DNA of 64,000 nt from Deltaproteobacteria bacterium (GTDB lineage Bacteria > Desulfobacterota > Syntrophia > Syntrophales > JACQWR01): positions 30,623 through 94,622 of the forward strand of contig JACQWR010000013.1 in assembly GCA_016209105.1 (NCBI GenBank). The letters run 5' to 3'. A program made the position numbers and the translations under genes. Position 1 is the stretch's first letter. The number at the start of each line of letters is the position of its first letter. The notes beneath the pieces were generated by a model. The model saw only the letters and a program-made list of their open reading frames with translations, ran no database searches and was not told the DNA's origin. This document shows positions 8,464 through 30,747 of the stretch, piece after piece.

Positions 8464-8516
8464 TGTAGTGGTAATGTAAATGAGATTTCTGAAATAGGGA
8501 ATACGGGGAGAACAAA

Positions 8517-8918: not shown

Positions 8919-8995
8919 ATCCGAACGAGGCTTGAGGGACAGATTTGAAATTTGTCCCCAAGCACCGATGAAGGCTTTTTTGCAGGAGAATGAAC

Positions 8996-9406
8996 ATGAA
9001 ATTGGATTGCATCAGGGTTCTGATGATAATCATGTTGACGACGATGATCGCCTTAACCGGCTCCGTGCTCATGGCGCAGCAGGACAAGATGATTTTAGAT
9101 TCTTCGAATGCCTCTCAGAATAAAGGACGGCCGGCAGTAACGTTTTTCCATAACCGGCATGTTGAAGCAGGATTGGACTGTAAGGCGTGTCATCATCTTT
9201 ATCAAAAGGGGAAAAATATTCTCGACGAAAGTCAACTGGTGGAGGGAAATCCGGCAATCCGTTGTTCTCAGTGCCATGCTGCACAGTTGCGTCTCAATGT
9301 GCAACAGGCCTTTCATAGCCAGTGCATCGGTTGCCACGTAACATACCAGAAGGAAAAGAAAAAAACAGTCCCCCGGTATTGTGGGGAATGCCATGCCCGG
9401 AAATAA
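8996..9406 (+). CDS. Periplasmic tetrahaem cytochrome c (cytochrome c3/class III-like)
   Basis: Four CxxCH motifs (CKACHH, CSQCH, CIGCH, CGECH). Hydrophobic signal peptide LMIIMLTTMIALTGSVLMAQQ, plus the c3-like VTFFHNRH. ATG 8996 sits 7 nt after AGGAG (8984-8988), so it is preferred over ATG 8990. Confidence 0.8.
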   Translation: MKLDCIRVLMIIMLTTMIALTGSVLMAQQDKMILDSSNASQNKGRPAVTFFHNRHVEAGLDCKACHHLYQKGKNILDESQLVEGNPAIRCSQCHAAQLRLNVQQAFHSQCIGCHVTYQKEKKKTVPRYCGECHARK

Positions 9407-9435
9407 ATTTCTCAACATTTACCTGGAGGGGAAAA

Positions 9436-10110
9436 ATGATCGTTGCGGAGAGAAAGCCTATTGATGAAATCAAGGAGATGGTGAAATCGTTCAAGAGAGT
9501 GTTGAATGTTGGTTGTGGAGGGTGTACTTCCATTTGTCATTCTGGTGGTCAAAAGGAAGTTGATCTCTTAAATGAAGAACTAAATAAAGCTTTTGAACTC
9601 GACCATATTCCACTCCAGATCGATAGCTTTACGATTGAGAGGCAATGCAATGCCGATTTTTATCTCCTGTTGGATGAGAAGATGCAATCCTATGACGCTG
9701 TCCTTTCGATGGCGTGCGGCGCCGGGGTCCAATTTCTCTCTGACCGAATTCCTGAAAAACCTGTCTTTCCGGCTTTAAACACTATTTTTGTCGGAGTGGA
9801 TCGTGATCTTGGATGGTTTGAGGAAAACTGCCGTTCCTGTGGAGAATGTGTTCTTGGAAAAACAGGAGGAATATGCCCGGTAACAAGATGTGCCAAGAGT
9901 CTGTTCAACGGACCCTGCGGAGGAACTGCTCATGAAGGTAAATGTGAAGTGAGCAAAGATACCCCCTGTGCCTGGTATGAGATTCATAAACGCTTAAAGC
10001 AACAAAACAGGTTGGAAAACATTCTCCTCATAACACCTGCACGAGAATGGCGAAATCAAACTCGGGGCACTCTGGTTCAGGAAGCGTATAAGGAACGATA
10101 TGCCAAATGA
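9436..10110 (+). CDS. metV: MetV, small Zn/FeS subunit of MetVF-type methylene-THF reductase (MTHFR C-terminal-like domain), copy 1
   Basis: Motifs VGCGGCTSICHSGG, MACGAGVQ, CRSCGECVL and CPVTRCAKSLFNGPCGG. The start was moved from ORF 9322 to ATG 9436, which follows GGAGGGG. The upstream extension overlaps the cytochrome gene. 224 aa against 222 aa for copy 2. Confidence 0.8.
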   Translation: MIVAERKPIDEIKEMVKSFKRVLNVGCGGCTSICHSGGQKEVDLLNEELNKAFELDHIPLQIDSFTIERQCNADFYLLLDEKMQSYDAVLSMACGAGVQFLSDRIPEKPVFPALNTIFVGVDRDLGWFEENCRSCGECVLGKTGGICPVTRCAKSLFNGPCGGTAHEGKCEVSKDTPCAWYEIHKRLKQQNRLENILLITPAREWRNQTRGTLVQEAYKERYAK

Positions 10111-13448: not shown

Positions 13449-16400
13449 ATGGATGTGAAAGTCGGGGCAGTGATGGTTGTGGGCGGAGGGATAGCCGGCA
13501 TTCAGGCTTCCCTCGATCTGGCGGAATCCGGTTACTACGTTTATCTCATCGAATCTTCCCCTGCCATTGGCGGCCGCATGGCGCAGTTGGACAAGACGTT
13601 TCCGACGAACGATTGCGCCATGTGTATCGTATCTCCGAAGTTGGTAGAGGCGGGTCGTCATTTAAACATCGAGATTCTCACCAATTCCGAATTAATTTCC
13701 TTAGGAGGAGAGCCGGGCCGCTTTACGGCGCGCGTGCGTCGTGCACCCCGTTATGTGGATACGGCGAAATGTACGGGTTGCGCCGATTGCGTAGCGGTAT
13801 GCCCGGTCGGGTTATCGAACGAATTTAATGAGGGATTGGATGAGCGGAAGGCAATCTATCGTCCCTATCCACAGGCGGTTCCCAATTCATTTTTGGTGAC
13901 GAAGCGCGGGACGAGTCCCTGCAAGGCTGCGTGCCCTGCGGAGACGAGCGCCCAGGGGTACGTTGCGTTGATCCAGGCCGGTCACTACGAGGAGGCGCTG
14001 GAGGTAATACGGGAATACAATCCCTTTCCCGCTTCGGTGGGGAGGGTATGCACGCATCCCTGTGAGAGGGAATGCAGTCGCGGGAAGGTTGATGCGCCGG
14101 TATCAATATGCGCTTTGAAGCGGTTTACCGCGGACTGGGTGTACGAGCACGGCAGCTCATTGAACAAGGCGGCAGGTGTCGGCGACGGCATTTCGGGGAG
14201 GCCCGAGGCAAAGGTGGCGGTAGTTGGTTCCGGACCCGCCGGTTTGAGTTGCGCGCATCATCTGGTTCGAATGGGGTACGGGGCAGTGGTATTCGAGTCA
14301 TTGCCGGTTGCTGGCGGCATGATGCGGGTAGGGATACCGGCATACCGTTTACCGCGAGAGGTGTTGCAGCGGGAGATTGATGTCATCGTTTCCGAGGGCG
14401 TGGAGATACGCCTGAACAGCCCCGTTCGGGACATAAACGGGTTATTTGCTGAGGGATACAGCGCGGTATTTTTGGCAATAGGCGCGCATGAGCCGCAACG
14501 TTTGGGCATCGAGGGAGAGGATGCGATCGGGGTATATCACGGCGTTCCTTTTTTACAGTCGGTGAGCTTGGGCGGTAAGGGGGGGACATTGCCCACCGTG
14601 GGCGATCGGGTGGTGGTCGTCGGAGGCGGCAACACGGCGGTGGATGCGGCGCGCACCTCACTTCGTTTGGGAGCCCGCGAGGTGGTGATGCTCTATCGTC
14701 GTTCCCGGGAGGAGATGCCGGCGAGCGGCTGGGAGATAGAACAGGCCGAGCAGGAGGGCGTCAAACTGGAATTGCTGACAGCTCCCGTGGCGGTAGAGGT
14801 AAAGGAGGGCCGGGTCGTCGGGGTAACGTGTCAGCGCATGGAGTTGGGCGAGCCTGACGAGAGCGGGCGCAGGCGTCCCGTGCCGGTGGCTGGTTCGGAA
14901 TTTTCCATTGGAGCGGACACGATGATCGCAGCGGTCGCGCAGGCGCCTGAGATATCGTTTTTGGATTCATCCCACGGTTTGGAGGTAAGTTCCCGTGGCA
15001 CCTTTGTGGTTGATCAAAAGACGCTGGCCACGAAGCGTGCGGGTGTTTTTGCCGGGGGCGATGTCCATCGCGGCCCGGGGATACTGATCGAGGCAATCGC
15101 GGATGGCAGGCGAGGCGCCCTTTCCATTGATCGCTATTTGAGAGGGGTTGATCTCCTCACCGCTCGTGAGGAGGTTCCCCTGCCGGTAGTCGCACTTACG
15201 GACGATGAGATAGACCATATCATTGAGGCGGGGAAGGTGGATTTATCTTCGCGGGTGTCCGTGGCCACGGCGCCGATTTCGGAACGCGTGCAAGATTTCC
15301 GCGAGGTGGAACTCTCATTGACGGAGGAGGAAGCAAAGCGTGAAGCTGCGCGTTGTCTTGAATGCGGGATCTGTTCGGAGTGCCATTTGTGTGTTCGGGT
15401 TTGCAAGGCAGGTGCGATAGATCACCAGGAGGCGGCTCGTGAGGATGAACTTCTGGTGGGGTCGGTGATTTTGGCGCCGGGGTATTCCTTATATGATCCC
15501 GGGTTGTCGCCGGAGTTGGGGTACGGCCGCTACGCGAACGTGGTGACGAGCATGGAGTTCGAGCGGATCCTCTCCGCCTCCGGACCTTTTGCGGGTCATG
15601 TGACCCGACCTTCGGATCATCGGGAGCCGAAGAAGATCGCCTTTTTGCAGTGCGTCGGCTCCCGGAACAAGGACAATGACTACTGCAGCTCGGTGTGCTG
15701 CATGTACGCCACAAAGGAAGCGGTTATTCTGAAAGAGCACCTGCCCGCTGCGGAGCCCACCATCTTCTATATGGACATCCGCGCCCAGGGAAAAGATTTT
15801 GATCTTTATTACGAACGGGCAAAAAAGGATTACGGCGTCCGTTACGTCCATTCCCATATCTCCCGCATCGCGGAGAAACCGGCGAGCGGTAATCTTCTGA
15901 TCAGGTATATAGATGCCGAGAAGGGGATACAGGAAGAAGAGTTCGACATGGCGGTTCTTTCCGTGGGCATGAAACCGGCGCCGCAGGCGCGGGAGCTTGC
16001 CGGGAGGCTCGGCGTCTCCCTCGACGGGAACGGGTTCTGCCTCTCCGATGGCTTTTCACCGCTCAACACCTCGGTGCCGGGCGTCTTTGCCTGCGGGGTA
16101 TTTCAAGGTCCCAAGGATATTCCGGAAACGGTCGTTCAGGCAGGCGCTGCGGCCGAGGCCGCTTCTGCCTTCCTTGCCGAGGCGAGAGGAACCCTCACGA
16201 GAAAGAAAGAGTATCCACCGGAGCGCGATGTAACCGCCCAGGAGGCCCGTATCGGCGTCTTCGTATGCCATTGCGGGATCAACATTGGGGGCATTGTCAA
16301 CGTTCCGGAGGTGAAGGAGTATGCACGAACGCTTCCCAACGTGTTCCATGTTGACGAGAACCTCTACACCTGTTCTCAGGACACGCAGGAGAAGATCAAG

Positions 16401-17927
16401 AAGGCCGTAGATGAATACCATTTAAATCGCGTCGTGGTGGCTTCCTGTTCGCCCCGCACCCATGAACCGCTCTTTCGGGAAACCATCCGGGAGATTGGCC
16501 TGAATAAATATCTTTTCGAGATGGCGAACATCCGCGATCAGTGTTCCTGGGTGCACATGAAACTTCCCCTCGAGGCCACTCAGAAGGCAAAAGAGTTGCT
16601 CAGCATGACGGTGGCAAAAGCCCGCTTGATCAGGGCGCTGGACGAGCCGCTTATGGAAATTAACAAGAAAGCCCTCGTCATCGGCGGCGGCCTGGCGGGA
16701 ATGAAGGCGGCTCTCGGTCTGGCGGAACAGGGTTTTGCCTCCGTCCTGGTGGAGCGGGAGAAAGAGCTTGGGGGAAACCTACGCCATATTTATCATACCC
16801 TGGAAGGAAAGGACGTTCAGCAATTTCTCGAGAGTTCCGTCCGGGAAGTTTTATCCAATCCCCTGATAGAAGTTGTAACGGACGCAGAGATAAAGAGCAT
16901 CAACGGCTACCTGGGCAACTTCCACACGGCGATATCGGCGGGAGGCAGCGAACGGGAATATGAACATGGGGTCGTGATCGTTTCTGTAGGAGCGCAGGAA
17001 AGCCGCCCGTCCGAATATCTCTATGGAAAGGACAACCGCGTCGTCACGCAGAGCGAACTGGAAGAGCGGATTGCCCGCCGGCCTGAAGAAGTAAAGACCT
17101 ATCGAAATATTGTGATGATCCAGTGCGTCGGTTCCCGCATTCCCGAACGACCCAATTGCAGTCGCATCTGTTGTTCCGTGGCGGTGAAAAACGCCCTCGC
17201 GCTCAAGGAGATTTCCCCTGATGCGAATATAACCGTCATCTACCGGGATATGCGCACCTATGGGCTCATGGAGCAGTATTACACGCTGGCTCGAAAAAAA
17301 GGCGTCACCTTTATCCCCTACGACGTGGAGGCAAAGCCGGAACTGAGTGCCGCCGGGGGTGATCTGAATCTGAGCGTGCGGGACAGGATGGTGAACGAGG
17401 AACAGCTCATCACCCCCGATCTTGTCGTGCTCTCCAGTGCGGTTGTGCCCTATGAGAATGACACTTTGGCAAAGATGCTGAAGGTGCCTCTGACGGCAGA
17501 TAAATTCTTCCTCGAAGCGCATATGAAACTGCGGCCGGTGGATTTTGCCACCGATGGCGTATTTCTTGCCGGCATGGCGCACTTCCCCAAGACCATCAGC
17601 GAGACAATAGCGCAGGCAGGAGCGGCCGTGTCGCGGGCTACCGCTGCCATCGCCAAAGGCTTTGTAAGCGTCCTTCCCACGATCTCCTGCGTAGACCAGA
17701 GCCGTTGCGTCGGCTGCGGCCTTTGCGAATCCCTCTGTCCGTTCAATGCCATCCGGGTGGGCGAGACGGAAAAAGGGAAGAAGGCCGAGACGATTGCGGC
17801 ATCGTGCAAAGGCTGCGGCATCTGCGCTGCCAGTTGCCCCCAGAAGGCAGCCGCTATACATCATTTTACGGACGAAGAGTTATACGCTCAAATAGAGGCA
17901 TTGAAAGATATCGCGGTAATGCAGTGA
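13449..17927 (+). CDS. Giant HdrA-class flavoprotein with inserted NfnB/GltD-like NAD(P)H oxidoreductase module and a second HdrA-like half (HdrL-type), copy 1
   Basis: 1492 aa.
- HdrA start: VVGGGIAGIQASLDLA, FPTNDCAMCI, CTGCADCVAVCP.
- GltD/NfnB-like part: SPCKAACPAETSAQGY, VAVVGSGPAGLSCAHHL, VVVVGGGNTAVDAART, GVFAGGDV.
- Then CLECGICSECHLCVRVC.
- Second half: GVFVCHCGINIGG, ALVIGGGLAGMKAAL.
- C-terminal 2x4Fe-4S: CVGCGLCESLCP, CKGCGICAASCP. Confidence 0.85.
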   Translation: MDVKVGAVMVVGGGIAGIQASLDLAESGYYVYLIESSPAIGGRMAQLDKTFPTNDCAMCIVSPKLVEAGRHLNIEILTNSELISLGGEPGRFTARVRRAPRYVDTAKCTGCADCVAVCPVGLSNEFNEGLDERKAIYRPYPQAVPNSFLVTKRGTSPCKAACPAETSAQGYVALIQAGHYEEALEVIREYNPFPASVGRVCTHPCERECSRGKVDAPVSICALKRFTADWVYEHGSSLNKAAGVGDGISGRPEAKVAVVGSGPAGLSCAHHLVRMGYGAVVFESLPVAGGMMRVGIPAYRLPREVLQREIDVIVSEGVEIRLNSPVRDINGLFAEGYSAVFLAIGAHEPQRLGIEGEDAIGVYHGVPFLQSVSLGGKGGTLPTVGDRVVVVGGGNTAVDAARTSLRLGAREVVMLYRRSREEMPASGWEIEQAEQEGVKLELLTAPVAVEVKEGRVVGVTCQRMELGEPDESGRRRPVPVAGSEFSIGADTMIAAVAQAPEISFLDSSHGLEVSSRGTFVVDQKTLATKRAGVFAGGDVHRGPGILIEAIADGRRGALSIDRYLRGVDLLTAREEVPLPVVALTDDEIDHIIEAGKVDLSSRVSVATAPISERVQDFREVELSLTEEEAKREAARCLECGICSECHLCVRVCKAGAIDHQEAAREDELLVGSVILAPGYSLYDPGLSPELGYGRYANVVTSMEFERILSASGPFAGHVTRPSDHREPKKIAFLQCVGSRNKDNDYCSSVCCMYATKEAVILKEHLPAAEPTIFYMDIRAQGKDFDLYYERAKKDYGVRYVHSHISRIAEKPASGNLLIRYIDAEKGIQEEEFDMAVLSVGMKPAPQARELAGRLGVSLDGNGFCLSDGFSPLNTSVPGVFACGVFQGPKDIPETVVQAGAAAEAASAFLAEARGTLTRKKEYPPERDVTAQEARIGVFVCHCGINIGGIVNVPEVKEYARTLPNVFHVDENLYTCSQDTQEKIKKAVDEYHLNRVVVASCSPRTHEPLFRETIREIGLNKYLFEMANIRDQCSWVHMKLPLEATQKAKELLSMTVAKARLIRALDEPLMEINKKALVIGGGLAGMKAALGLAEQGFASVLVEREKELGGNLRHIYHTLEGKDVQQFLESSVREVLSNPLIEVVTDAEIKSINGYLGNFHTAISAGGSEREYEHGVVIVSVGAQESRPSEYLYGKDNRVVTQSELEERIARRPEEVKTYRNIVMIQCVGSRIPERPNCSRICCSVAVKNALALKEISPDANITVIYRDMRTYGLMEQYYTLARKKGVTFIPYDVEAKPELSAAGGDLNLSVRDRMVNEEQLITPDLVVLSSAVVPYENDTLAKMLKVPLTADKFFLEAHMKLRPVDFATDGVFLAGMAHFPKTISETIAQAGAAVSRATAAIAKGFVSVLPTISCVDQSRCVGCGLCESLCPFNAIRVGETEKGKKAETIAASCKGCGICAASCPQKAAAIHHFTDEELYAQIEALKDIAVMQ
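13480..15720 (+). repeat. Dispersed repeat, copy A (5' ~2.2 kb of HdrL-type gene 1), highly similar to 30780-33040
   Basis: Line-by-line comparison gives 55/60 identical nt for 13561-13620 vs 30871-30930 and again for 13621-13680 vs 30931-30990. An 82-nt stretch has one mismatch. Boundaries are approximate. Confidence 0.75.
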
Positions 17928-17968
17928 ATAGTTAGTAGTGAATAGTTCATTGAACACAGGGTGCAACC

Positions 17969-18724
17969 ATGAGTTTTGAGCCGAAGATATTGACGTTCCT
18001 GTGCAACTGGTGCGCATATGCCGGCGCCGATCTTGCCGGCATTTCCCGCTTCCAGTATCAGCCGAACACCCGCGTCATACGGGTGATGTGTTCCGGCCGG
18101 ATTGACCCGGTGTTTATCCCCCGCGCTTTTCTTGCCGGCTTTGACGGGGTCATGATTCTCGGCTGCCATCCCGGCGATTGCCACTACTTGAGCGGCAACA
18201 TCCAGGCGGAACGCAAGATAAACCTTCTCAAGAAACTCCTGACCGACGAAGGGGTAGGCAGCGAGAGGCTCCTTCTGGACTGGGTTTCTGCCGGTGAAGC
18301 GCAACGGTTCGCCCTGCTTGTCAACCAGTTTACGGAGCAGATACGGGCTTGCGGACCGCTGCCTCAGGCAAAAGATTTTGAAGAGCGGCTGCGGGCTGTC
18401 GCCGCATCGCTTGAAGGAGAAAAGATCCGCTGGATGGCGGGCAAGGGGCCCGAACTCCTGGAGAAGGAAAACGTGTACGGCGAGCGCGTTGATCCGGAAA
18501 AGATCAATGCGGTTATGGAAAGTACCGTCAGAGAGGAGTTGGCGAAGAACCGCATCCTTATTCTGCTCGAAACGACCCCCCTCACGGCTAAAGAAATCAG
18601 TATGAAACTTGAGCTTCCCCTGAAGCAAACACTCTCCTATACCGTTTCTCTGGTCGGCGAGGGCAGGATCGGGTTCGATCCCTCAGAGGAAACTCATTAT
18701 CCGCGCTATGTAAGGAGTGCGTAA
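17969..18724 (+). CDS. mvhD: MvhD/FlpD-like protein fused to a C-terminal winged-helix-like domain (Cys form)
   Basis: The N-terminal 130 aa carry the MvhD motifs LCNWCAYAGADLAG, VMCSGRIDP and GCHPGDCHY. The C-terminal ~110 aa include NRILILLETTPLTAKEISMKLELPLKQTLSYTVSLVGEGRI, which resembles an ArsR/TrmB-type wHTH. Confidence 0.82.
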   Translation: MSFEPKILTFLCNWCAYAGADLAGISRFQYQPNTRVIRVMCSGRIDPVFIPRAFLAGFDGVMILGCHPGDCHYLSGNIQAERKINLLKKLLTDEGVGSERLLLDWVSAGEAQRFALLVNQFTEQIRACGPLPQAKDFEERLRAVAASLEGEKIRWMAGKGPELLEKENVYGERVDPEKINAVMESTVREELAKNRILILLETTPLTAKEISMKLELPLKQTLSYTVSLVGEGRIGFDPSEETHYPRYVRSA

Positions 18725-18741
18725 AAGTTAATGAGGAAAGA

Positions 18742-21700
18742 ATGAATACTGTTCCGGACAAACCCGTTGGCGCCGTACTGGTGGTAGGCGGCGGCATCGG
18801 CGGCATGCAGGCCTCCCTCGATCTGGCGGAATCGGGCTTTTATGTGTATCTCGTAGACAGCGCGCCGACCATCGGCGGCGTCATGTCGCAACTCGACAAG
18901 ACCTTTCCCACGAACGACTGCGCCATGTGCATCATGTCGCCGAAGCTGGTGGGTACGGGCTCTCACCGGAATATCCGCCTGATCACGAACGCCTCCGTGA
19001 AGGAAATCGTCGGTCCCGCCGGCAATTTCGAGGCCCGGATCACCAGAAAAGCCCGGTATATCCGTCCCGACAAGTGCACCGGCTGCGGAGAATGCGCCAA
19101 ACACTGCCCCGTTATCGCCGGTGATGATTATAACGTGGGAATGAGCAGAAGGTCGGCGGTGTACCTGCGCTATCCCCAGGCCATCCCCAAGGTGTTTCTC
19201 ATCGACCGGGAGGCCTGTATCGGCTGCGGTCTCTGCGAGCGGGTTTGCCTCGCCAACGCCGTGGACTATGCCGATCAGGATACGGAAGAGACCCTGTCCG
19301 TCGGTTCCGTCATCTTGGCGCCCGGCTTCGAGGTATTTGATGCGAGGCGCCGCCCGGAGTTCGGCTATGGCGTCTATCCCAACGTCCTGACGAGTATCGA
19401 GTTTGAGCGGATCCTGAGCGCCACCGGCCCCCATCGGAGTCACCTGCTTCGTCCCTCCGACGGTTCCATCCCCGAAAGGATCGCCTTTATCCAGTGCGTC
19501 GGCTCCCGTGATACGAGCTGCGGCAATGACTACTGTTCTTCCATCTGCTGCATGTACGCGACCAAAGAGGCCATCATCGCCAAAGAGCATGTCCACTTCG
19601 TCAAGCCGACGATCTTCTATATGGATATCAGGGCCTACGGCAAGGGATTCGATGCCTATTATGAACGCGCCAAGGCCGACTATGGCGTCCGGTTCATCAA
19701 GTCCATGGTCTCGAAGGTCAGGGAAGATCCGCGGACCGATAATCTCCTGATTACCTATCTGAATGAGGAGGGGGAGAGGCTCGAAGAGGAATTCGAGCTG
19801 GTGGTTCTTTCCGTCGGCGTGGTTCCCTCGACGTCCGTTCGCGAGATGGCGAAGCGTCTGGACGTGGATGTGGACCGCTTCGGTTTCTGTGAGACGGATA
19901 CCTTCGCTCCCGTCGCCACGTCGAGAGAGGGAATCTACGTCTGCGGCGCCTTCGAGAGTCCCCGGGATATTCCGGAAACCGTTTCCCAGGCCAGCGGCGC
20001 GGTTGCCGCGGCCACGGGCATCATCGCCTCGGCGCGGGGAACCCTGGCGTTAAAAAAAGAATACCCGCCCGAGGATGAGGTCAAGCCGGAAGAGGAACCG
20101 CGGATCGGCGTCTTCGTCTGCCACTGCGGCATCAATATCGGGGGCGTGATCAATGTCCCGTCGGTCAAGGAGTACGCCGGGACGCTGCCCAACGTGGTCC
20201 ACGTGGATGAGAACCTCTACACCTGCTCGCAGGACACGCAGGAAAAGATAAAAAATGCCGTCAAGGAACGGGGCTTGAACCGGGTCATCGTCGCCTCCTG
20301 TTCCCCGCGAACCCATGAGCCCATGTTCCGGGAAACCATCCGGGATGCCGGGCTGAATAAGTTTCTCTTCGAGATGGCCAATATCCGCGACCAATGCTCC
20401 TGGGTGCACATGCGGCAGAAGGCGGAGGCAACGGAGAAGGCCAAGAAGCTTGTCCGGATGGCCGTGGGCAATGTGCGCTTGAACCAGGCATTGACGGAGA
20501 CATCCGTGCCGGTGGTCCAGCGGGGCCTGGTAATCGGCGGCGGCGTTGCGGGCATGACGGCCGCCCTCCAGCTTGCTGAACAGGGGTTTGAAGTGTTTCT
20601 GGTGGAAAAGGAAAGCCGGCTGGGAGGCAACCTCTGGAACCTCCATTATACTCTCGACGGCAAAGACATCGAGGCCTTCCTCCTCGATTTGATTGCGAAG
20701 GTCTCAAACAATCCGCTGATCCGGGTGCTGCTGAACAGCCTGATTGTGGATTTTACCGGTGTCCGGGGAAACTTCACCACCGGTGTCATGACGGCGCCTG
20801 CCATGTACTATCAGAAGATCGAGCACGGCATCACCGTCATGGCAACGGGCGCCGAAGAGGAGAAGCCGCATGAATACGGTTACGGCGAGGACGAGCGCGT
20901 CCTGACGCAGCTTGAACTGGAAGGCCGTATCGCGGGGGCGGATACGGGGATAAGTGGGATCAAAGAAGTGGTCATGATCCAGTGCGTGGGTTCCCGGAAT
21001 GAGCAGCACCCCTCCTGCAGCCGCACCTGCTGCGCCACGGCCATCAAGAACGCGCTCAAGCTCAAAGAACTGAACCCTGCGATCCGCATTCACATTCTCT
21101 ATCGTGATATCCGCACCTACGGCCTGATGGAGCCGTACTATGCCCGGGCGCGCAAGGAAGGCATCCTGTTTGTCCGCTATGAGCCGGCGGAAGGTCCTGA
21201 AGTAACGGTGAACGAAAACAAGCTCTCGGTATCCTATGACGATAAAATGTTAAAGGAACGGATCACCATTACCCCTGATCTTCTCGTTCTGTCATCGGCA
21301 ACCGTCCCGCGGGAAAACAAGGAACTTGCCAATCTCTTGAAGGTGCCCCGGACGGCAGAAGGCTTCTTCCTCGAGGCTCACATGAAGCTGCGCCCCGTGG
21401 ATTTCGCCAGTGACGGCATCTACCTTTGCGGGGGCGCCCATGCCCCGAAATTGATCAGTGAGACCATATCCCAGGCAGGCGCCGCAGTGGCGAGGGCCTG
21501 CACCATCCTTTCGAAGGAAAACCTCTCCGTTGGCGGGGTCGTGGCCGTGGTTACGGGTGAGCAATGCGCCGCCTGTCTTACCTGTGTGCGGGTATGCCCC
21601 TACGATGTGCCGGTTATCAATATCCGGGGAGAGGCGGAGATAGATATCATCAAGTGCAAAGGATGCGGCACCTGTGCGGCGGAATGCCCGGCCCGGGCGA

Positions 21701-21774
21701 TAGATTTGATGCATTTTCGCGGCAGTCAACTCGAGGCGAAGATCGGAGCCTTGATCAGCGCGCAGGTTAGTTAG
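18742..21774 (+). CDS. hdrA: Double-length HdrA-like heterodisulfide reductase subunit A flavoprotein (no NfnB-like insert)
   Basis: 1010 aa. LVVGGGIGGMQASLDLA, FPTNDCAMCI, CTGCGECAKHCP, CIGCGLCERVC, GVFVCHCGINIGG, LVIGGGVAGMTAAL, CAACLTCVRVCP, CKGCGTCAAECP. RBS GAGGA. Confidence 0.88.
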   Translation: MNTVPDKPVGAVLVVGGGIGGMQASLDLAESGFYVYLVDSAPTIGGVMSQLDKTFPTNDCAMCIMSPKLVGTGSHRNIRLITNASVKEIVGPAGNFEARITRKARYIRPDKCTGCGECAKHCPVIAGDDYNVGMSRRSAVYLRYPQAIPKVFLIDREACIGCGLCERVCLANAVDYADQDTEETLSVGSVILAPGFEVFDARRRPEFGYGVYPNVLTSIEFERILSATGPHRSHLLRPSDGSIPERIAFIQCVGSRDTSCGNDYCSSICCMYATKEAIIAKEHVHFVKPTIFYMDIRAYGKGFDAYYERAKADYGVRFIKSMVSKVREDPRTDNLLITYLNEEGERLEEEFELVVLSVGVVPSTSVREMAKRLDVDVDRFGFCETDTFAPVATSREGIYVCGAFESPRDIPETVSQASGAVAAATGIIASARGTLALKKEYPPEDEVKPEEEPRIGVFVCHCGINIGGVINVPSVKEYAGTLPNVVHVDENLYTCSQDTQEKIKNAVKERGLNRVIVASCSPRTHEPMFRETIRDAGLNKFLFEMANIRDQCSWVHMRQKAEATEKAKKLVRMAVGNVRLNQALTETSVPVVQRGLVIGGGVAGMTAALQLAEQGFEVFLVEKESRLGGNLWNLHYTLDGKDIEAFLLDLIAKVSNNPLIRVLLNSLIVDFTGVRGNFTTGVMTAPAMYYQKIEHGITVMATGAEEEKPHEYGYGEDERVLTQLELEGRIAGADTGISGIKEVVMIQCVGSRNEQHPSCSRTCCATAIKNALKLKELNPAIRIHILYRDIRTYGLMEPYYARARKEGILFVRYEPAEGPEVTVNENKLSVSYDDKMLKERITITPDLLVLSSATVPRENKELANLLKVPRTAEGFFLEAHMKLRPVDFASDGIYLCGGAHAPKLISETISQAGAAVARACTILSKENLSVGGVVAVVTGEQCAACLTCVRVCPYDVPVINIRGEAEIDIIKCKGCGTCAAECPARAIDLMHFRGSQLEAKIGALISAQVS

Positions 21775-21820
21775 CAGGAAACCAATATAGTCTTTTATTA
21801 CATTTGGCATTGGTATTACT

Positions 21821-23548
21821 ATGAAATTACAAGCAATTTCTGTTTCGCAATATAGAAGCATCTCTTCTGCTAAACGAATTCGTCTAGAACGTTCAACTAT
21901 TTTAATTGGACCGAATAATGAAGGTAAATCAAACATTCTTCGTGGATTAGTTCTTGCGATGACAGTTTTGACTAGAGGTCGTCACCGCATGATGTTGAGG
22001 GACCGATTTCGGGCAACTTATAATGCACTTGGATACAATTGGGAGAAGGATTATCCTATTAATCTTCAAAAAAAGAACCCGAACGGGGAGACAGAAATAG
22101 TCCTAGAATTTGCGCTTGAGAATGAAGAATATGAAGAATTTTATAGGGAGGTCAAGAGTAGAATAACTGGGAGTTTGCCGATTCGAATAGGAATTGGCAA
22201 GAATGATGTATCAATTAAATTCAATAAAAAAGGCAAAGGCTCTGCAGCATTATCTAAGAAGTCTGCTGTAATTGCTGATTTCGTTTCCAGTAGAATTGAG
22301 TTTGAGCATATACCGGCTGTGCGAACCGCCCAATCTGCACAAAATATTGTATCAGATCTCGTTAGTCGTGAATTATATGGATTAGAAAATAATCCTGATT
22401 ATAAATTAGCGTTACAAAAAATTGAGGAACTTCAAACGCCGATTTTAAAAACGCTTTCAGATAGTATATTTAATACACTCAAACAATTTTTACCTCAGGT
22501 TAAAAAGGTAAAAATAGAATTACCACAATCAGAGAGGATTCAGGCATTTCGTAGAGGCACCGAAATTTCGGTTGATGATGGAACGATGACACCTTTGCAG
22601 TACAAAGGTGATGGAGTGCAAAGTTTAGCGGCCTTAGGAATAATTCGCCATGCATCTGATAAATCCGCAAAAGGCAAGAAGTTTGTTATTGCTATAGAGG
22701 AGCCAGAATCTCATCTACATCCCAATGCGATCCATGAACTAAAGGAAGTCATCGATGGGCTCAGTGAGAAACATCAAATTATTATTACATCACATAACCC
22801 ACTATTTGTGGATAGGCGGATTATATCCAACAATATAATTGTTAATGATCGCAAAGCAAAGCCAGCCAAGAATGTTGAAGAAATAAGAAAGATATTAGGT
22901 GTTCGTGCATCTGACAATCTTAGAAATGCCGAGATGGTCTTGGTGGTCGAGGGCGAAGATGACATTATTAGCCTAAAAGCTATTATTCAAGAATATTCTG
23001 GATATTTGAAGGACGCTATTAAAAATGGATCACTTGCTTTCGATTCATTGAATGGCGGCACAAACCTGTCATATAAAATATCCTTACTCCGCGATGCAAT
23101 TTGTCTGTACCATGTATTCATAGACGATGATCGCTGCGGAAGGGAATCCTATAAGAAAGCTAAAGATAGTGGCTTGCTTGAAGATGGCCAGATTAATTTT
23201 GCAAAAGCTCACGGTAGGAACGAAAGCGAAATCGAAGATTTGTTTAATCCAGATGTGTATAAGGCAGCAATCGAAAATAAATATCGTATTAAACTTTCAA
23301 TTCCCAAATTTCGGGGGAATAAGAAGTGGTCCGAAAGAGTGAAAGATGTTTTTGGTGCGCATGGTAAACCTTGGGATGATTCCATTGAGAAAGATTTAAA
23401 GTATATAGTTGCCAAGCTAGTTTCATCAAATCCACAGGACGTGATAAATAACCATGACAAAATGATCATTGATTCACTTATAATGGCATTGGAAGGCAGA
23501 TTAAAGGAAAGGGCAGAGGCCCAACGAGCCGCTTCAGTGGATGACTGA
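21821..23548 (+). CDS. OLD-family nuclease (N-terminal ABC-like ATPase + C-terminal TOPRIM), orphan / class-1-like
   Basis: 575 aa. Walker A GPNNEGKSN, signature-like YKGDGVQSL, Walker B FVIAIEEPESHLHP, SHNPLF. TOPRIM MVLVVEGEDDIISLK and VFIDDDRCG. AT-rich: sampled 60-nt lines give 28-37% G+C. No adjacent helicase gene. Confidence 0.8.
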   Translation: MKLQAISVSQYRSISSAKRIRLERSTILIGPNNEGKSNILRGLVLAMTVLTRGRHRMMLRDRFRATYNALGYNWEKDYPINLQKKNPNGETEIVLEFALENEEYEEFYREVKSRITGSLPIRIGIGKNDVSIKFNKKGKGSAALSKKSAVIADFVSSRIEFEHIPAVRTAQSAQNIVSDLVSRELYGLENNPDYKLALQKIEELQTPILKTLSDSIFNTLKQFLPQVKKVKIELPQSERIQAFRRGTEISVDDGTMTPLQYKGDGVQSLAALGIIRHASDKSAKGKKFVIAIEEPESHLHPNAIHELKEVIDGLSEKHQIIITSHNPLFVDRRIISNNIIVNDRKAKPAKNVEEIRKILGVRASDNLRNAEMVLVVEGEDDIISLKAIIQEYSGYLKDAIKNGSLAFDSLNGGTNLSYKISLLRDAICLYHVFIDDDRCGRESYKKAKDSGLLEDGQINFAKAHGRNESEIEDLFNPDVYKAAIENKYRIKLSIPKFRGNKKWSERVKDVFGAHGKPWDDSIEKDLKYIVAKLVSSNPQDVINNHDKMIIDSLIMALEGRLKERAEAQRAASVDD

Positions 23549-23694
23549 CGTTGCCCTTAAGCTTATTGTTCACTGCTTTTTATCGGTAATCTGCGTTTCT
23601 AATTGTACCTTGGCAGTCAACAGTGCTAGGTGAACGAGAGAAAAGTACGCAAGAACCGGATGAAACGGGTATAATCACAGGGAGGATAGCAAAT

Positions 23695-24132
23695 ATGGCG
23701 GACAGTGCAGGGAACGGATTTGAGCCTGAGGTTATTGCAATCTGCTGTGAGCATTGAGCTTACAGCGCTGCGGACCTGGCAGGTTCGATGAGACTGAGTT
23801 ATCCCAGTAATGTGAAGGTGGTGAAAGTACCCTGCACCGGCCGTGTGGATATTTTGTTGATCTTGCACGCCTTTGAAAATGGGGTGGACGGCGTTTACCT
23901 GGCCGGATGCCTGGAGGGCGAGTGCCATTTTTTGAAGGGAAACCTGCGGGCAAAAAAGCGGGTGCAGTATGTGAAAGGTTTGCTGGAAGAGGTCGGCATA
24001 GGCGGTGAACGGGTGGAGATGTTTAACATGAGCGCATCCCAGGGTCAGCGGTTTGCACAGTGTGCGCAGGAAATGACGGAACGCGTGCGTTCGTTGGGAC
24101 CGTCGCCGGTAAAGGGAGGTTCAAAAAAATGA
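23695..24132 (+). CDS. mvhD: MvhD/FlpD-like protein, predicted selenoprotein (in-frame UGA at 23755-23757)
   Basis: RBS GGAGGA (23681-23686) lies 8 nt before ATG 23695. Read-through gives MADSAGNGFEPEVIAICCEH-U-AYSAADLAGSMRLSYPSNVKVVKVPCTGRVD. This aligns with paralog 1, FEPKILTFLCNWCAYAGADLAG...VMCSGRID, with U opposite the second Cys. The track ORF 23788..24132 is the in-frame continuation and would lack the Cys motif. Confidence 0.75.
23755..23757 (+). other. Putative selenocysteine (UGA) recoding site in mvhD copy 2
   Basis: The TGA is in frame between ATG 23695 and ATG 23788. It aligns with Cys of CNWCAY in the paralog at 17969. I could not confidently fold a SECIS hairpin by eye. Confidence 0.65.
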
Positions 24133-24797
24133 TCGTAGGTAATCGCAAGGAATTTCAGGAGATCGTGGGGATGCTGGGCTCCAACAGGCGGGTGCTTCTG
24201 TTGGGGTGCAATGAGTGCGTGACGGTTTGCGGCGTGGGCGGCGAGAAGGAAGTAGGGGTGCTCGCATCGGAATTGCGCATTCACTGGAAGACAGCCGGGG
24301 AGACCTTCGAGGTCAAAGAGCATACGCTGGAGCGGCAGTGTGATTACGAGTACATAGATCAGGTGCGCGGTTTTGTCGGCGATTATGACGTCATTTTATC
24401 GATGGCCTGCGGGGCTGGGGTTCAATATGTCGCGGAGGCCTATAAGACAAAACTGGTGATGCCGGCGGTGAATACGACCTTTCTGGGAGTCACCCTGGAG
24501 CAGGGGGTATGGAGTGAGCGCTGCCAGGGCTGCGGCGCCTGCATCCTCGATATGACGGGGGGAGTCTGTCCCATCGCACGCTGCGCGAAGAGTCTCATGA
24601 ACGGCCCCTGCGGCGGTTCGTCGGGAGGGAAGTGCGAGGTGGACAAGGAGGTGGATTGCGGCTGGCAGTTGATAATTGACCGTCTCACGGAGCTTGGACA
24701 GTTGGATCGTTACGAAGATATCATACCGGTAAAGGATTGGCGCAGCAGCCGCGAAGCAGGTCCGCGCAAGAGAATAAGGGAGGATTTGAGACTGTGA
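24129..24797 (+). CDS. metV: MetV small subunit of MetVF-type methylene-THF reductase, copy 2
   Basis: LGCNECVTVCGVGG, MACGAGVQ, CQGCGACIL and CPIARCAKSLMNGPCGG. ATG 24129 overlaps the mvhD stop (ATGA), so the ORF 24060 extension was rejected. Confidence 0.82.
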   Translation: MIVGNRKEFQEIVGMLGSNRRVLLLGCNECVTVCGVGGEKEVGVLASELRIHWKTAGETFEVKEHTLERQCDYEYIDQVRGFVGDYDVILSMACGAGVQYVAEAYKTKLVMPAVNTTFLGVTLEQGVWSERCQGCGACILDMTGGVCPIARCAKSLMNGPCGGSSGGKCEVDKEVDCGWQLIIDRLTELGQLDRYEDIIPVKDWRSSREAGPRKRIREDLRL

Positions 24798-25717
24798 AGA
24801 CGAATTCAAAAATAGAGAAGATATGGGACTCCGGTGGGTTCATCGTCACGTCGGAATGCGGCCCCCCGCGTGGGGCGGACGCTGAGATTGTTCGTAAAAA
24901 GGGAGAGTATTTACGGGGTGTGGTAGATGGCGTGAACGTCACGGACAATCAGACCTCGGTGGTGCGCATGTCTTCCCTTTCCGCCTGTGCGATATTGAAG
25001 GGTATGGGCCTGGAGCCCATTTTACAGATGGTCTGCCGCGACCGGAACCGGATCGCCTTGCAGAGCGACATTTTGGGCGCCGCCGCCCTGGGGATAAACA
25101 ACATGCTCTGTTTATCCGGCGATCATCAAAAGTTCGGCGATCATCCCCAGGGCAAGAATGTCTATGATATTGATTCCATGCAGTTGATACAGACGGTCCG
25201 TCAGATGCGTGATGAGGGAAAATTTCTGGGCGGCGACGAGATAAAGGGAAAGCCGGTGATCTTTATCGGCGCGGCGGAAAATCCCTTTGCCGATCCCTTC
25301 GAGATACGGGCGGCCAGGCTGGGAAAAAAGGTAAAGTCGGGTTGCCAGTTTATTCAGACGCAATGCATCTATAATTTAGAGAAGTTCAGCCGCTGGATGC
25401 AGATGGTCTGCGACCGCGGCTTGCATGAGAAGTGCGCCATTCTGGCCGGGGTAACGCCGATGAAATCGGCGGGCATGGCGAATTATATGAAAAAAAATGT
25501 TCCCGGAATGGATGTCCCTGACGCCCTGATTGAACGAATGAAAGGGACGCCCAAAGAGAAGCAGGCGGAAGAGGGGATCAATATCTGTGTAGAGTCCATA
25601 CAGCAGTTGAGGGAAATGCCGGGTGTGCGGGGCATTCACATCATGGCGATAGAATGGGAAGAGAAGGTAGCGGAAATCGTCAAAGCTGCCGGATTATTTC
25701 CGAGACCGGAAGTGTAA
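24794..25717 (+). CDS. metF: Methylenetetrahydrofolate reductase MetF, copy 2
   Basis: TSECGPP, NVTDNQTSVVRM, CRDRNR, LCLSGDH and FIQTQCIYN. GTG 24794 overlaps the metV stop (GTGA) and follows GGGAGGA. 307 aa, like copy 1. Confidence 0.87.
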   Translation: MKTNSKIEKIWDSGGFIVTSECGPPRGADAEIVRKKGEYLRGVVDGVNVTDNQTSVVRMSSLSACAILKGMGLEPILQMVCRDRNRIALQSDILGAAALGINNMLCLSGDHQKFGDHPQGKNVYDIDSMQLIQTVRQMRDEGKFLGGDEIKGKPVIFIGAAENPFADPFEIRAARLGKKVKSGCQFIQTQCIYNLEKFSRWMQMVCDRGLHEKCAILAGVTPMKSAGMANYMKKNVPGMDVPDALIERMKGTPKEKQAEEGINICVESIQQLREMPGVRGIHIMAIEWEEKVAEIVKAAGLFPRPEV

Positions 25718-25795
25718 CAACAAAATGCCGCAGTGAGAATGCAGAATACAGAATAGAAAGTGTTTCTTACGTCCTTTTGTGAAAAGGAGCTGCCG

Positions 25796-27232
25796 ATGAA
25801 TTTAGCAATAAGTTCCGATCTGGCCAGTCAGATCCGCAGGCAGTGCGGTGAAAACGTCTTCTTGTGTTATCAGTGCCAGAAGTGCTCCTCCGGGTGTCCT
25901 GTCGCCGAATATTTCGACCTTGCCCCCAACCAGCTTATGCGTGCCCTTCAACTGGGACAGAAAGACATGGTTCTGAAGTCAAGGACCTTATGGCTTTGCG
26001 CCATGTGCGAGACCTGCGCCGTTCGGTGTCCTCATGACATAAATATCACCAGGATCATGGATGTCCTCAAGATCATGGCCCAGCAGGAAGGACTCTCTTC
26101 GCCCCTTCCCTCCGCGGTGCTGTTGAATCAAGCTGCCATGAGAGGCATCCGCCTCTTCGGGCGGATGTATGAAGCAGGCCTCATGGGTGAAATCTATTTC
26201 CGTCAGATGCTCTCAGGCACGCTCGACTTCCGCCGGCTCCTTCGAATAGATCTTCCCTTGGCGTCAAAAATGATCCGGAAAAGGAAACTGAAGCTCCTTC
26301 CGTCCTTCGGGAAGACCGCCTTATCGAAGAAAAACACGAAACAAGGAGAAGGGATCGCCTATTACCCCGGCTGCAGCCTCCACGGCACATCGAGTGAATA
26401 CGATCTTTCCACCCGCGCGGTACTTTCCCGGCTGGGCGTTACGCTTCAGGAACCACAGAGCTGGAACTGCTGCGGAAGCACCCCCGCCCACTCAACGGAT
26501 CACTATCTTTCCGTACTGCTTCCCCTGAGGACCCTGCAGACCATTGATAAGGCGGGATTCGACACCCTAACCACACCGTGTCCTTCCTGTTTTATTCGCC
26601 TGAGAACAGCGCAGAGAGAATGTCGGGATGAAGGGATCAAACAGCGGCTTCAAGCCGAAGTAGGAGAACTCCCCTCAGCGGATTTGAAGATTGAACATCT
26701 CCTGCAGACCGTCTCGGAAAGGATCGGATACGAGAAGGTAAGGGAAGCTGTCGTTCGTCCCCTCAGGGGATTAAAGGTAGTCTGCTACTATGGCTGCATC
26801 ATCACCAGGCCTCCGAAAATTACCGGGGTTCAGGATTATGAATATCCTACCGCCATGGAACGGATAATGAAAACAGTGGGCGCTACTCCTCTTGACTGGT
26901 CGTACAAAACCCGCTGTTGCGGTGCAACCCTCAGTATTTCAAAACCGGCAATCGCTCTTAACCTTACCGGGAAAATCCTCCAAAACGCAAAAAACGTGGG
27001 CGCCGACGCCATTGTTGTAGCCTGTCCGCTGTGCCAAATAAACCTCGATGTCCGTCAGCAACAGATCAGCGAAGAGGGGGGAAAGCCGTTTTCTATCCCT
27101 ATTATGTATTTTACCCAGTTGATGGGACTGGCTTTCGACATGAGTGCTTCAGAACTGGGACTTGGAAAACATTTTGTCGATGCCGGGACCATAGTCGCTC
27201 AAAGCGCACCTGCTCAATTCTCATGCCCTTAA
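25796..27232 (+). CDS. Fused HdrC-HdrB-like protein
   Basis: The N-terminal part has CYQCQKCSSGCPV and CAMCETCAVRCPHDIN. The C-terminal part has YYPGCSLHG, WNCCGSTPAH and KTRCCGATL. ATG 25796 follows AAAGGAG. Confidence 0.85.
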   Translation: MNLAISSDLASQIRRQCGENVFLCYQCQKCSSGCPVAEYFDLAPNQLMRALQLGQKDMVLKSRTLWLCAMCETCAVRCPHDINITRIMDVLKIMAQQEGLSSPLPSAVLLNQAAMRGIRLFGRMYEAGLMGEIYFRQMLSGTLDFRRLLRIDLPLASKMIRKRKLKLLPSFGKTALSKKNTKQGEGIAYYPGCSLHGTSSEYDLSTRAVLSRLGVTLQEPQSWNCCGSTPAHSTDHYLSVLLPLRTLQTIDKAGFDTLTTPCPSCFIRLRTAQRECRDEGIKQRLQAEVGELPSADLKIEHLLQTVSERIGYEKVREAVVRPLRGLKVVCYYGCIITRPPKITGVQDYEYPTAMERIMKTVGATPLDWSYKTRCCGATLSISKPAIALNLTGKILQNAKNVGADAIVVACPLCQINLDVRQQQISEEGGKPFSIPIMYFTQLMGLAFDMSASELGLGKHFVDAGTIVAQSAPAQFSCP

Positions 27233-29842: not shown

Positions 29843-30724
29843 ATGCGGTTAGCAGAAAATCTGAAAAAGAAAAAGTTTGTCGTTACCTCGGAACTTCAGC
29901 CTCCTATCGGCATGGGAGCGGGTGAGTTCGTCCAAAATGTGGAGCGGGCACGGGGAAGGGTGGATGCCTTTACCGTGCCCGAACTGAAAATTGAAGGGCT
30001 GGTTGCCGATACGATGGGGACCTGCAAGATACTGAGGGAGCATCAATTCGATCCGATCCTGCAAACCGCCTGCCGCGACAGGAACAGGGTGGAACTCCAA
30101 GAGTACCTTCTCAAGGCATCGGAGGCGGGCATAGAAAATATCCTTACCTTTACGGAGGACTACCGTATCACCGGTGACAGCCTGCAGGAAATTATGTTCT
30201 TTCATGTGGATTCGGGCAAGCTTTTTTCCGTTGTGGAGAATATGAGCCGGGGACAGGATATTTCCGGGAAGGAATTGCCCGCCAAGGCCACTTTCTGCAT
30301 TGGTTCCGGCATTGATTCCCGATGGGGCAGACAAGTGCCGGATATGCAACTCAAGGAAATGGAATCGCTGGCGGGTTTTGGCGCCCAGTATTTCCTCTCC
30401 ACGCCGGTGTTTGATCTCGATTCCTTCAATCAATTCATGAAACGCCTGGCGCCTCTCCGGGTTCCGGTCATCGCCGAAATCATACTCGTGAGAACCGCCG
30501 AGATGGGGATCTTTCTTAACAAACACATGAGGAGTGGGATCGTCCCCCCGCATATCATTGAGAAATTAGCCAAGGCTCCGGACAAGGAAAAAGCGAGCAT
30601 CGAAATCGTCAGCGATCTGGTGAAAGGGCTGAAGGATCTCTGTCAGGGGGTGCACCTCATCCCCTTCGGCGCGGAGGACCGGATTGCAAAGTACCTTGAG
30701 GCTGCAAAACTTTCATCCCTGTAA
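29843..30724 (+). CDS. Divergent MetF/MTHFR-family protein (copy 3, motifs altered)
   Basis: Retains TSELQPP and CRDRNR. NITDNQ is replaced by TVPELK, LCLSGDH by LTFTEDY, and FIQTQCIYD by YFLSTPVFD. RBS GAGGAG. Lies immediately upstream of HdrL-type gene 2. Confidence 0.7.
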   Translation: MRLAENLKKKKFVVTSELQPPIGMGAGEFVQNVERARGRVDAFTVPELKIEGLVADTMGTCKILREHQFDPILQTACRDRNRVELQEYLLKASEAGIENILTFTEDYRITGDSLQEIMFFHVDSGKLFSVVENMSRGQDISGKELPAKATFCIGSGIDSRWGRQVPDMQLKEMESLAGFGAQYFLSTPVFDLDSFNQFMKRLAPLRVPVIAEIILVRTAEMGIFLNKHMRSGIVPPHIIEKLAKAPDKEKASIEIVSDLVKGLKDLCQGVHLIPFGAEDRIAKYLEAAKLSSL

Positions 30725-30747
30725 CGGGAAGGGGAACCTTTGACGGT

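Follow-up and report, generated by a model that had tools for sequence, protein, structure and literature searches.

We analyzed a 64,000-nt stretch of a metagenome-assembled genome (MAG) of a Deltaproteobacteria bacterium (contig JACQWR010000013.1, positions 30,623 to 94,622; hereafter, the window) and found a gene for an OLD-family ATPase-nuclease (21821..23548, + strand, 575 aa) inserted between hdrA (18742..21774, + strand) and mvhD (23695..24132, + strand), two genes of a core energy-metabolism operon. The gene itself is of a known kind, a solitary OLD gene, and the interesting part is its context, namely a base-precise insertion into a core operon at a spot that has been reused. We consider it probable that the window holds an intact, horizontally acquired, solitary Class 1-type OLD enzyme that was captured illegitimately into the operon, is co-transcribed with it, and likely acts against phages. 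The enzyme would be a fusion of an ABC-type ATPase, at the N-terminus, with a Toprim two-metal nuclease, at the C-terminus, and a 1.9-kb low-GC piece of DNA carrying only this gene would have been joined to the operon by illegitimate, non-site-specific recombination. The piece would have entered the 27-nt spacer at its first bases, directly behind the stop codon of hdrA, and left both this stop codon and the ribosome-binding site (RBS) of mvhD intact; this short stretch would be a recurrent landing or retention site in the lineage. Of this picture, the family of the enzyme, the intactness of its gene, the foreign origin, the exact point of insertion, and the reuse of the site are shown below, and co-transcription, weak translation, the role in defence, and the substrate are inferences.

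Defence genes are usually described in islands, prophages, and hotspots located between transcription units. In the window, a nuclease that is potentially toxic lies between two genes of a co-directional string. HdrA-MvhD-MetVF is a proposed electron-bifurcating methylene-tetrahydrofolate reductase module of the Wood-Ljungdahl pathway, and the host of the operon is an energy-limited anaerobe.

A low-GC segment inserted immediately after hdrA

The hdrA gene (1010 aa; Pfam Pyr_redox_2, Fer4, and FAD_oxidored) ends with a TAG codon at 21772-21774, the last base of which is the final native base ahead of the insert. The foreign segment (21775..23667, + strand, 1893 nt, GC content 0.33-0.41), delimited by blastn against relatives with an empty site, is composed of a 46-nt AT-rich leader (21775..21820, GC content 30%), the OLD open reading frame (ORF), and a 119-nt 3' tail (23549..23667). 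It is followed by the 27-nt native hdrA-mvhD spacer (23668..23694), which contains the AGGGAGG Shine-Dalgarno sequence of mvhD and a TATAAT hexamer (23670-23675), and then by mvhD itself (FlpD family; Pfam FlpD, 1.2e-38). A preliminary description of the window, made from the letters and a list of ORFs, had placed the end of hdrA at 21774, a single 575-aa ORF in the interval, and the mvhD start codon at 23695, and all of these positions were recovered here. The abrupt change of composition that it reported was reproduced as well. Measured in sliding 300-nt intervals, the GC content falls from 0.56-0.61 to 0.33-0.41 within the ORF (38% overall) and recovers by ~23750; the 1-kb bin 22001-23000 is the lowest of the window (0.374 vs 0.44-0.61 elsewhere). 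The GC content at third codon positions (GC3) of the OLD ORF is 0.31, the minimum among the 47 long ORFs of the window, compared to 0.59-0.75 in the eight neighbouring genes.

The insertion point was located by comparison with other hdrA-mvhD loci (given L numbers below). The cluster of HdrA proteins at ≥90% identity includes close relatives of the window, and in two of these, L095 and L096, the HdrA protein is 92.8% identical and the last 2.4 kb of hdrA DNA is ~88% identical to that of the window. Their junction consists of TAG, the 27-nt spacer GATACAATCACAGGGAGGGTAGCGGAT, and ATG, that is, an empty site, the sequence of which is TTAGTTAGGATATAATCACAGGGAGG. Homology of the window to L095 and to two further relatives, L097 and L098, extends to 21774 and ends there; against L095/L096, it restarts at 23667/23668, the ends of the insert being uncertain by 1 nt as one G is common to both junctions. 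The native spacer at 23668-23694 aligns base for base with GATACAATCACAGGGAGGGTAGCGGAT of L095 and with the right-hand copy GATATAATCACAGGGAGGGTAGCGGAT of L098, and both the hdrA stop codon and the mvhD RBS are unbroken by the insert. In eight distant relatives (L010 and seven others), mvhD follows hdrA at 8-160 nt with no insert, and a census of ~150 loci from genome and metagenome scans gave hdrA-mvhD distances of almost always -30 to +250 nt. The two genes are thus normally contiguous, as the preliminary description had supposed, and its proposal of a horizontal insertion gains support from the same empty sites. Because the junction is empty in close and distant relatives and almost throughout this census, the OLD gene is, on comparative grounds, a recent acquisition and not an ancestral member; loss of an ancestral operon gene elsewhere is ruled out by the composition together with the empty outgroups. 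One apparent exception, a 1.6-kb gap in L087, proved to contain native hdrC/B-like genes of host composition and is not an insert.

A chimera, in which assembly or binning fused foreign DNA to the operon, might be suspected given that the source is a MAG and that the composition shifts so abruptly. However, six Logan runs (SRR12113399-406), each assembled separately, reproduce both insert junctions with 100% identity and with up to ~3.5 kb of native flank on the left and 7 kb on the right, and the native spacer resumes in register beyond the insert. The junctions are also found in the NCBI MAG contig (113 kb, 'Deltaproteobacteria bacterium'), in which the OLD protein is MBI4633206.1 and HdrA is MBI4633205.1, and the OLD ORF is identical in seven assemblies of the population. 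Since both junctions recur at full identity in six separate assemblies, the arrangement is not a chimera, and we give this explanation practically no weight.

The encoded ATPase-nuclease and its relatives

Membership of the OLD family, which the preliminary description had proposed, is supported by several kinds of comparison. Among the PADLOC profile models, 'Old' was the best match (4.7e-34), followed by AriA, GajA, and HEC-01A, while Pfam returned AAA_15 (4.2e-24, over the full profile) and AAA_21 (2.8e-20). Thermus scotoductus OLD (Ts OLD, 6P74) was the top hit of a sequence search of the PDB, followed by GajA; a profile of 56 homologues strengthened these matches and aligned the EGEDD motif of the family to E377/D381 of Ts OLD. 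The Old protein of phage P2 matches the ORF product at an E value of 7e-8. An AlphaFold model built on the family alignment (pLDDT 82.8) was used for a Foldseek search, which ranked 6P74 first (5e-17, 597 aligned columns) and GajA second (2.6e-16), and then retron Eco8 or PtuA ATPases.

All of the motifs quoted earlier for this ORF (GPNNEGKSN, FVIAIEEPESHLHP, SHNPLF, VLVVEGEDDI, and FIDDD) are found in its translation. The Walker A motif, or P-loop, GPNNEGKS (G30-S37, 21908..21931, + strand) is invariant in the 56-sequence alignment and aligns with GPNGAGKT of Ts OLD. The Walker B region FVIAIEEPESHL (residues 288-299, 22682..22717, + strand) aligns to 'viiEEPEmyLHP' of Ts OLD and, as there, has a glutamate at the acidic position (for the role of Ts OLD E276 in Walker B, see PMC7049728); A291, E293-E296, and H298-H300 are invariant. 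The set of GPNNEGKS, EEPE, and H325 is retained in all 56 homologues, so that Walker A, Walker B, and the H-loop are all represented. The Toprim nuclease core (approximately residues 370-475, 22928..23245, + strand), delimited by alignments to Ts OLD and GajA, contains E377 and D381 within EGEDD (22949-22963), D435 and D437 within DDD (23123-23131), and E470 and E472 (23228-23236). All six acidic residues are invariant in the 56 homologues, and the GajA alignment spans EGEDD and DDD; sequence comparison thus finds the acidic metal ligands E and DxD as well as those for metal B. By analogy with Ts OLD, these residues may act as metal ligands, and in the alignments the invariant residues correspond to its ATPase and two-metal Toprim machinery (PMC7049728). 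The ratio of nonsynonymous to synonymous substitution rates (dN/dS) is 0.06-0.10 against the related genes of L090 and L007. Together with the invariant residues, this indicates that the gene is an intact OLD-family ATPase-nuclease under purifying selection.

Gene calling started the ORF at an internal ATG (21989-23548) in three of the six identical contigs and gave a 519-aa product (P0001) without Walker A; automated annotation of the OLD gene can therefore miss the ATPase P-loop. The full-length homologues indicate that the 575-aa start is the correct one.

The direct flanks of the OLD gene are hdrA and mvhD. No helicase gene adjoins the ORF, none was found among the profile-searched flanking genes (13449-27232), and none was recognised among the other long ORFs of the window, which were not profile-searched. 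The neighbours of eight homologues are mutually dissimilar, and none is common to them. The L007 homologue has a UvrD-like gene 540 nt upstream, but an opposite-strand gene stands between the two and the arrangement is not repeated in the other contexts, so a conserved partner gene was ruled out. The gene is therefore an orphan, as had been claimed; however, a solitary OLD gene is a recognised category and not an incomplete Gabija system. Class 1 OLDs are defined as single isolated genes with no UvrD/PcrA/Rep-like helicase immediately downstream (PMC7049728, PMC12392090), and by its context the window gene is a Class 1 OLD under this definition. Members of this class have been called rare (0.45% of genomes) and little studied (PMC12392090). 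Like the Class 1 enzymes P2 Old, Ts OLD (6P74), Vibrio cholerae OLD (Vc OLD), and YbjD/OldB, the window OLD is encoded by an isolated gene and has an N-terminal ABC-type ATPase with a glutamate-type Walker B (EEPE) as well as, at the C-terminus, a Toprim domain with E...D, DxD, and ExE acidic ligands; its length is near that of P2 Old. Unlike these comparators, it resides inside a metabolic operon, not in a prophage or a defence island.

The structural features that separate the classes are less clear-cut here. Class 1 enzymes are ~50 aa shorter than those of Class 2 and lack their C-terminal helical domain, and Ts OLD accordingly has a short tail (PMC7049728), whereas the model of the window OLD has four helices (481-570, ~90 residues) beyond the Toprim core, the helical part after the final acidic ligands amounting to ~100 residues. 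The fold scores against Ts OLD and against GajA, a Class 2 OLD, are nearly equal. With GajA, the second-best fold match, the window OLD has its two-domain architecture in common, and the GajA models of PADLOC match it across residues 248-517. An invariant lysine, K527, lies 55 residues past E472. The OLD protein of B. pseudomallei has E508 and K562 at a similar spacing, a likeness along the chain and not of superposed structures. Despite this resemblance, Gabija (GajA + GajB) was rejected as its defining gene pair is absent, with no gajB (UvrD-like helicase) adjacent to the window gene or to any of the eight homologues. A retron-associated OLD (Class 3, Eco8) was also rejected: the NCBIfam model retron_eff_Eco8 reached 29.6 bits against a cut-off of 250, and there is no adjacent reverse transcriptase gene. 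Rfam gave no family at threshold across the window. The third candidate, PARIS (Class 4, AriA + AriB), does not fit a single fused ORF, and the AriA models cover the ATPase part only and score below the Old model.

Solitary OLD enzymes of ~575 aa form a large, uncharacterised clade, of which this protein is a member. The homologues that were scored number more than 3200, many of them ~575 aa long and 50-85% identical, from Planctomycetota (Rubinisphaera, Phycisphaerae), Thermodesulfovibrionia, Bryobacterales, and many metagenome contigs. The close homologues are low in GC content too (0.36-0.37), and four of the six homologue contigs checked have the gene alone in a low-GC islet surrounded by DNA of higher GC content, with unrelated flanks: L007 (3105-4832; 0.36 vs 0.53 for the contig), L090 (58-1788), L091 from Rubinisphaera margarita (8001-9728; 0.49 vs 0.58), and L092 (8001-9722). 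In the remaining two, L008 and L094, the homologue matches a low-GC contig. This distribution suggests repeated transfer out of low-GC hosts, and transfer as a single gene appears to be family-wide. Similarity of the window to L090 (83% at the nucleotide level) and L007 (76%) runs from ATG to stop only; at synonymous distances (dS) of 0.8-2.1, this comparison was uninformative about common flanks that might define a mobile unit. Among plasmids, the best matches (46% identical) are on Ralstonia megaplasmids, and no phage or plasmid vector was found. A 45% identical homologue from E. coli was considered as ybjD and rejected, being an accessory gene beside an IS3 transposase.

An 84%-identical homologue (L008, 120-1712 of SDBV01046211.1; L009) shows no similarity upstream of window position 21956, so that 45-64 N-terminal residues, Walker A among them, are missing from it. 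A resolvase gene follows 1.9 kb downstream, and this homologue may be a truncated copy carried by a mobile element.

The same data bear on whether the OLD gene has become a domesticated host gene that serves the cell, for instance in DNA repair or the control of the cell cycle, and that is kept because co-expression with hdrA-mvhD-metVF is useful. The ORF is intact, retains all family-invariant residues, and is identical in the seven assemblies of the population, and a non-defence role of this kind has been reported for the archaeal OLD ATPase Cran1 (PMC12796447). On the other hand, a GC3 of 0.31 is still strongly foreign and shows little amelioration, neither the closest relatives nor any other lineage examined has the gene at this site, and the homologues lie in unrelated contexts, in four of six contigs as one-gene low-GC islets. 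We regard domestication as very unlikely.

Recurrent use of the hdrA-mvhD junction

The preliminary description had pictured an insertion at this junction. The event itself is confirmed, but it is not unique, since the sister lineages L097 and L098 have filled the same 10-nt spot. L098, which is 88% identical to the window in hdrA at the nucleotide level, has a 2.35-kb low-GC insert at this junction (2483-4831 of ORJL010457481.1) with seven sense-strand ORFs, encoding an unknown 211-aa protein, HicA and a partner, a DUF4258 protein and a partner, and PBECR2 and DUF2283 proteins. By their domains, the latter six make up three toxin-antitoxin-like pairs. An exact direct repeat of 9 nt, AGGATATAA, flanks the insert. 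The insert of L097 (8167-8932 of Ga0598253_0010514, JGI 3300063034) begins after TAGGATATA with a stop-interrupted 3' fragment of a type I restriction-modification (R-M) hsdM gene (62-64% identical to the C-termini of HsdM proteins, E 3e-11); an ORF6N gene (PF10543, 1.9e-34) comes next, and the contig ends within the insert. The three inserts have no sequence in common, their ends included, although their insertion points are within 10 nt of one another.

Over the last 2388 nt of hdrA, the identity of the window is 0.881 to L098, 0.887 to L097, and 0.875 to L095, while these three are closer to each other (L098-L097, 0.921; L097-L095, 0.912; L098-L095, 0.904); all four are at ~0.69 to L010. 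By these identities, the window branches outside the group formed by the empty L095 and the occupied L097 and L098. With an empty member inside that group, the junction was ancestrally empty, and independent insertions into it happened at least twice and probably three times. In a distant lineage, L124 (hdrA C-terminus 75% identical), a 1.04-kb insert (6930-7971 of Ga0082212_10001848) with a GC content of 0.43 vs 0.52-0.54 contains three sense-strand ORFs of 76, 144, and 80 aa, the latter two without a Pfam match, and may be counted as a fourth foreign-looking insert between hdrA and mvhD. All cargo genes observed are co-oriented with the operon.

Because sister lineages hold different foreign cargo within 10 nt, the junction is, on this comparison, a small hotspot of recurrent insertion, in keeping with the known concept of core-gene defence hotspots and on a much smaller scale. 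Like those of E. coli and Pseudomonas aeruginosa (PMC10121019, PMC10250203), it has fixed flanks, is mostly empty, and contains varied defence cargo. Unlike them, it accepts only one to seven genes within a 10-nt landing stretch, its cargo is all co-oriented with the operon, and it is situated in a 27-nt spacer inside a co-directional Wood-Ljungdahl gene string, not between transcription units. Part of the apparent precision may come from selection, because only about the first 12 nt of the spacer tolerate DNA without harm to the hdrA stop codon or the mvhD RBS.

The sequence around the window insert was examined for traces of a mobile element. Beyond the single G, no terminal inverted repeats or target duplication were found at its ends. 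A 10-nt pair GGCAGTCAAC (21721 and 23612) was rejected as a duplication: the 21721 copy is part of native hdrA sequence that continues in relatives, and only repeats at chance level remain. No tRNA gene was found, and no integrase or transposase was recognisable among the long ORFs of the window, which were judged by size and N-terminal sequence, most of them not profile-searched. To that extent, the earlier statement that the insert has neither flanking repeats nor an integrase stands.

A remnant of a larger, site-specifically integrated defence island would leave a partly similar picture. In this explanation, an integrase-bearing element, or a satellite mobilised in trans, would have used an attB overlapping TTAGGATATAA after hdrA, and the OLD gene, the toxin-antitoxin array of L098, and the R-M fragment of L097 would be leftovers of deletion and cargo turnover. 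Three different cargos within 10 nt are compatible with this, the 9-nt repeat of L098 resembles an att core or a target duplication, the truncated hsdM at the start of the L097 cargo is a sign of decay, and all the cargo is of defence or toxin-antitoxin type, as in core-gene hotspots (PMC10121019, PMC10250203). However, in what is visible of the three inserts there is no sign of an integrase, recombinase, or transposase, the one in the window lacks any repeat longer than one G, nothing is common to the three inserts even at their ends, and any deletion would need to have ended precisely at the native boundary on either side. We therefore hold a decayed island to be unlikely, if conceivable.

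Integron cassettes also resemble the inserts in being promoterless and co-oriented, and in often bringing toxin-antitoxin or defence cargo to one point downstream of a host promoter. An integron cassette or secondary site was nevertheless rejected for the window: the 3' tail has no attC-like imperfect palindrome and its fold is not significant (z-score -0.47 for 23540-23700), there are no flanking inverted repeats, the insert does not start with TT after G and so does not fit the G|TT crossover, and no intI was seen. A related but rather doubtful idea, to which we give little credence, is that the first ~10 nt after the hdrA stop codon serve as an operon-internal docking site, where promoterless defence or toxin-antitoxin genes are captured sense-wise and expressed from the Wood-Ljungdahl transcript. 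This would amount to an integron-like 'cassette on a housekeeping promoter' without integron machinery, possibly by an unrecognised recombination route, of which the 9-nt repeat of L098 would be a footprint.

The nuclease might also have propagated itself in the manner of a homing endonuclease, by cutting the empty junction and being copied in during repair. The unit common to relatives is essentially the ORF alone, four of six homologue contigs have the gene as a low-GC islet of its own, and in the window it lies between two highly conserved genes. Against this, dS to the nearest homologue is already 0.8, at which loss of flank similarity is expected anyway, the homologues occupy unrelated sites with no conserved target, and the other occupants of the junction are not such nucleases. 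We know of no OLD protein that homes, and this explanation seems highly improbable.

Expression, proposed role, and neighbouring genes

Consensus scans detected no promoter-like site on the + strand in the 46-nt leader or the 119-nt tail and no terminator-like hairpin in 21775-23694. Because such sites are missing at the relevant places, a single transcript through hdrA, the OLD gene, and mvhD-metVF is likely. The lack of a Shine-Dalgarno sequence ahead of the OLD ATG (TTGGTATTACTATG), pointed out in the preliminary description, was verified, and weak translation probably keeps the nuclease dosage low. The TATAAT at 23670-23675 in the native spacer, 19 nt ahead of the mvhD ATG, has no convincing -35 element; L098 has TATAAT as well, and L095 has TACAAT. 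It was rejected as a compensatory promoter that arose after the insertion, given that the L098 spacer has TATAAT, its duplicated copy included.

Under the capture that we favour, the nuclease gene would thus most likely be carried on the hdrA...mvhD-metVF message, with mvhD-metVF expressed by read-through and the nuclease itself probably translated weakly. Its role would most likely be single-gene anti-phage defence, by analogy with P2 Old, Vc OLD, and E. coli YbjD: in the course of infection, the ATPase would sense or gate and the Toprim site would nick or cleave nucleic acid. For the three analogues, exclusion of lambda by P2 Old, a block of ICP1 replication by the nickase Vc OLD, and anti-phage phenotypes of induced YbjD have been described (PMC7049728, PMC12392090, PMC13261556).

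Several observations weigh against parts of this proposal. Regarding the protein, Pfam OLD-like_TOPRIM is matched over positions 3-67 of 67 but below threshold (E 0.031; 15.2 bits vs a cut-off of 23.2), the structural alignments to Ts OLD and GajA have an identity of only ~16%, and the match to P2 Old (27% identity) is limited to residues 220-427. The analogues do not agree on a substrate, as P2 Old was reported to cleave tRNA (PMC13261556), Vc OLD nicks DNA, and the Toprim of YbjD is dispensable. No relative was found in IMG/VR, and GenBank phages match only with P2 Old and two fragments at <30% identity. As for the mode of insertion, the 9-nt repeat of L098 is a hint that this event, at least, took a site-specific or transpositional route. 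Finally, the scans for promoters and terminators rely on matches to a consensus, that of sigma-70 only.

If the cargo shares the transcript of the operon, essential and strongly expressed operons can carry immunity genes along and remain unbroken. The locus would then offer a natural test case for polarity, for control of the dosage of toxic cargo through a missing Shine-Dalgarno sequence, and for the origin of a hotspot without visible mobile-element genes.

Downstream of mvhD, metV (24129-24797, + strand; Pfam DUF5981, the C-terminal domain of methylenetetrahydrofolate reductase, MTHFR) and metF (24794-25717, + strand; Pfam MTHFR) were placed from gene calls on the identical contigs. Judging by ORF N-termini, and by Pfam for hdrA-mvhD-metV-metF, the wider region looks like a Wood-Ljungdahl (acs) region.

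The mvhD gene contains an in-frame TGA (23755-23757) in the motif ICCEH*AYSAADLAG. Eight relatives have a TGA at the matching place (FCCE[HF]*[AG]Y), followed by highly conserved nucleotides, GCGGACCTGGCAGGTTCGATGAG, and a hairpin beginning at the TGA has a predicted energy of -17.2 kcal/mol (z = -1.16). This codon probably encodes selenocysteine, with a selenocysteine insertion sequence (SECIS) element after it. The gene is split by gene callers, which report only a 114-aa remainder.

Two further regions of the window hold paralogous modules. Upstream of hdrA, 13449-18724 encodes a 1492-aa GltD/HdrA-type fusion and a 251-aa MvhD-like protein. In the second region, 29843-35253, another gene of the MTHFR family (29843-30724) precedes an ORF of 1501 aa (30748-35253) whose N-terminus is HdrA-like. 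Between the two paralogous HdrA/MvhD/MTHFR modules of the window are genes for a PAS histidine kinase and a response regulator.

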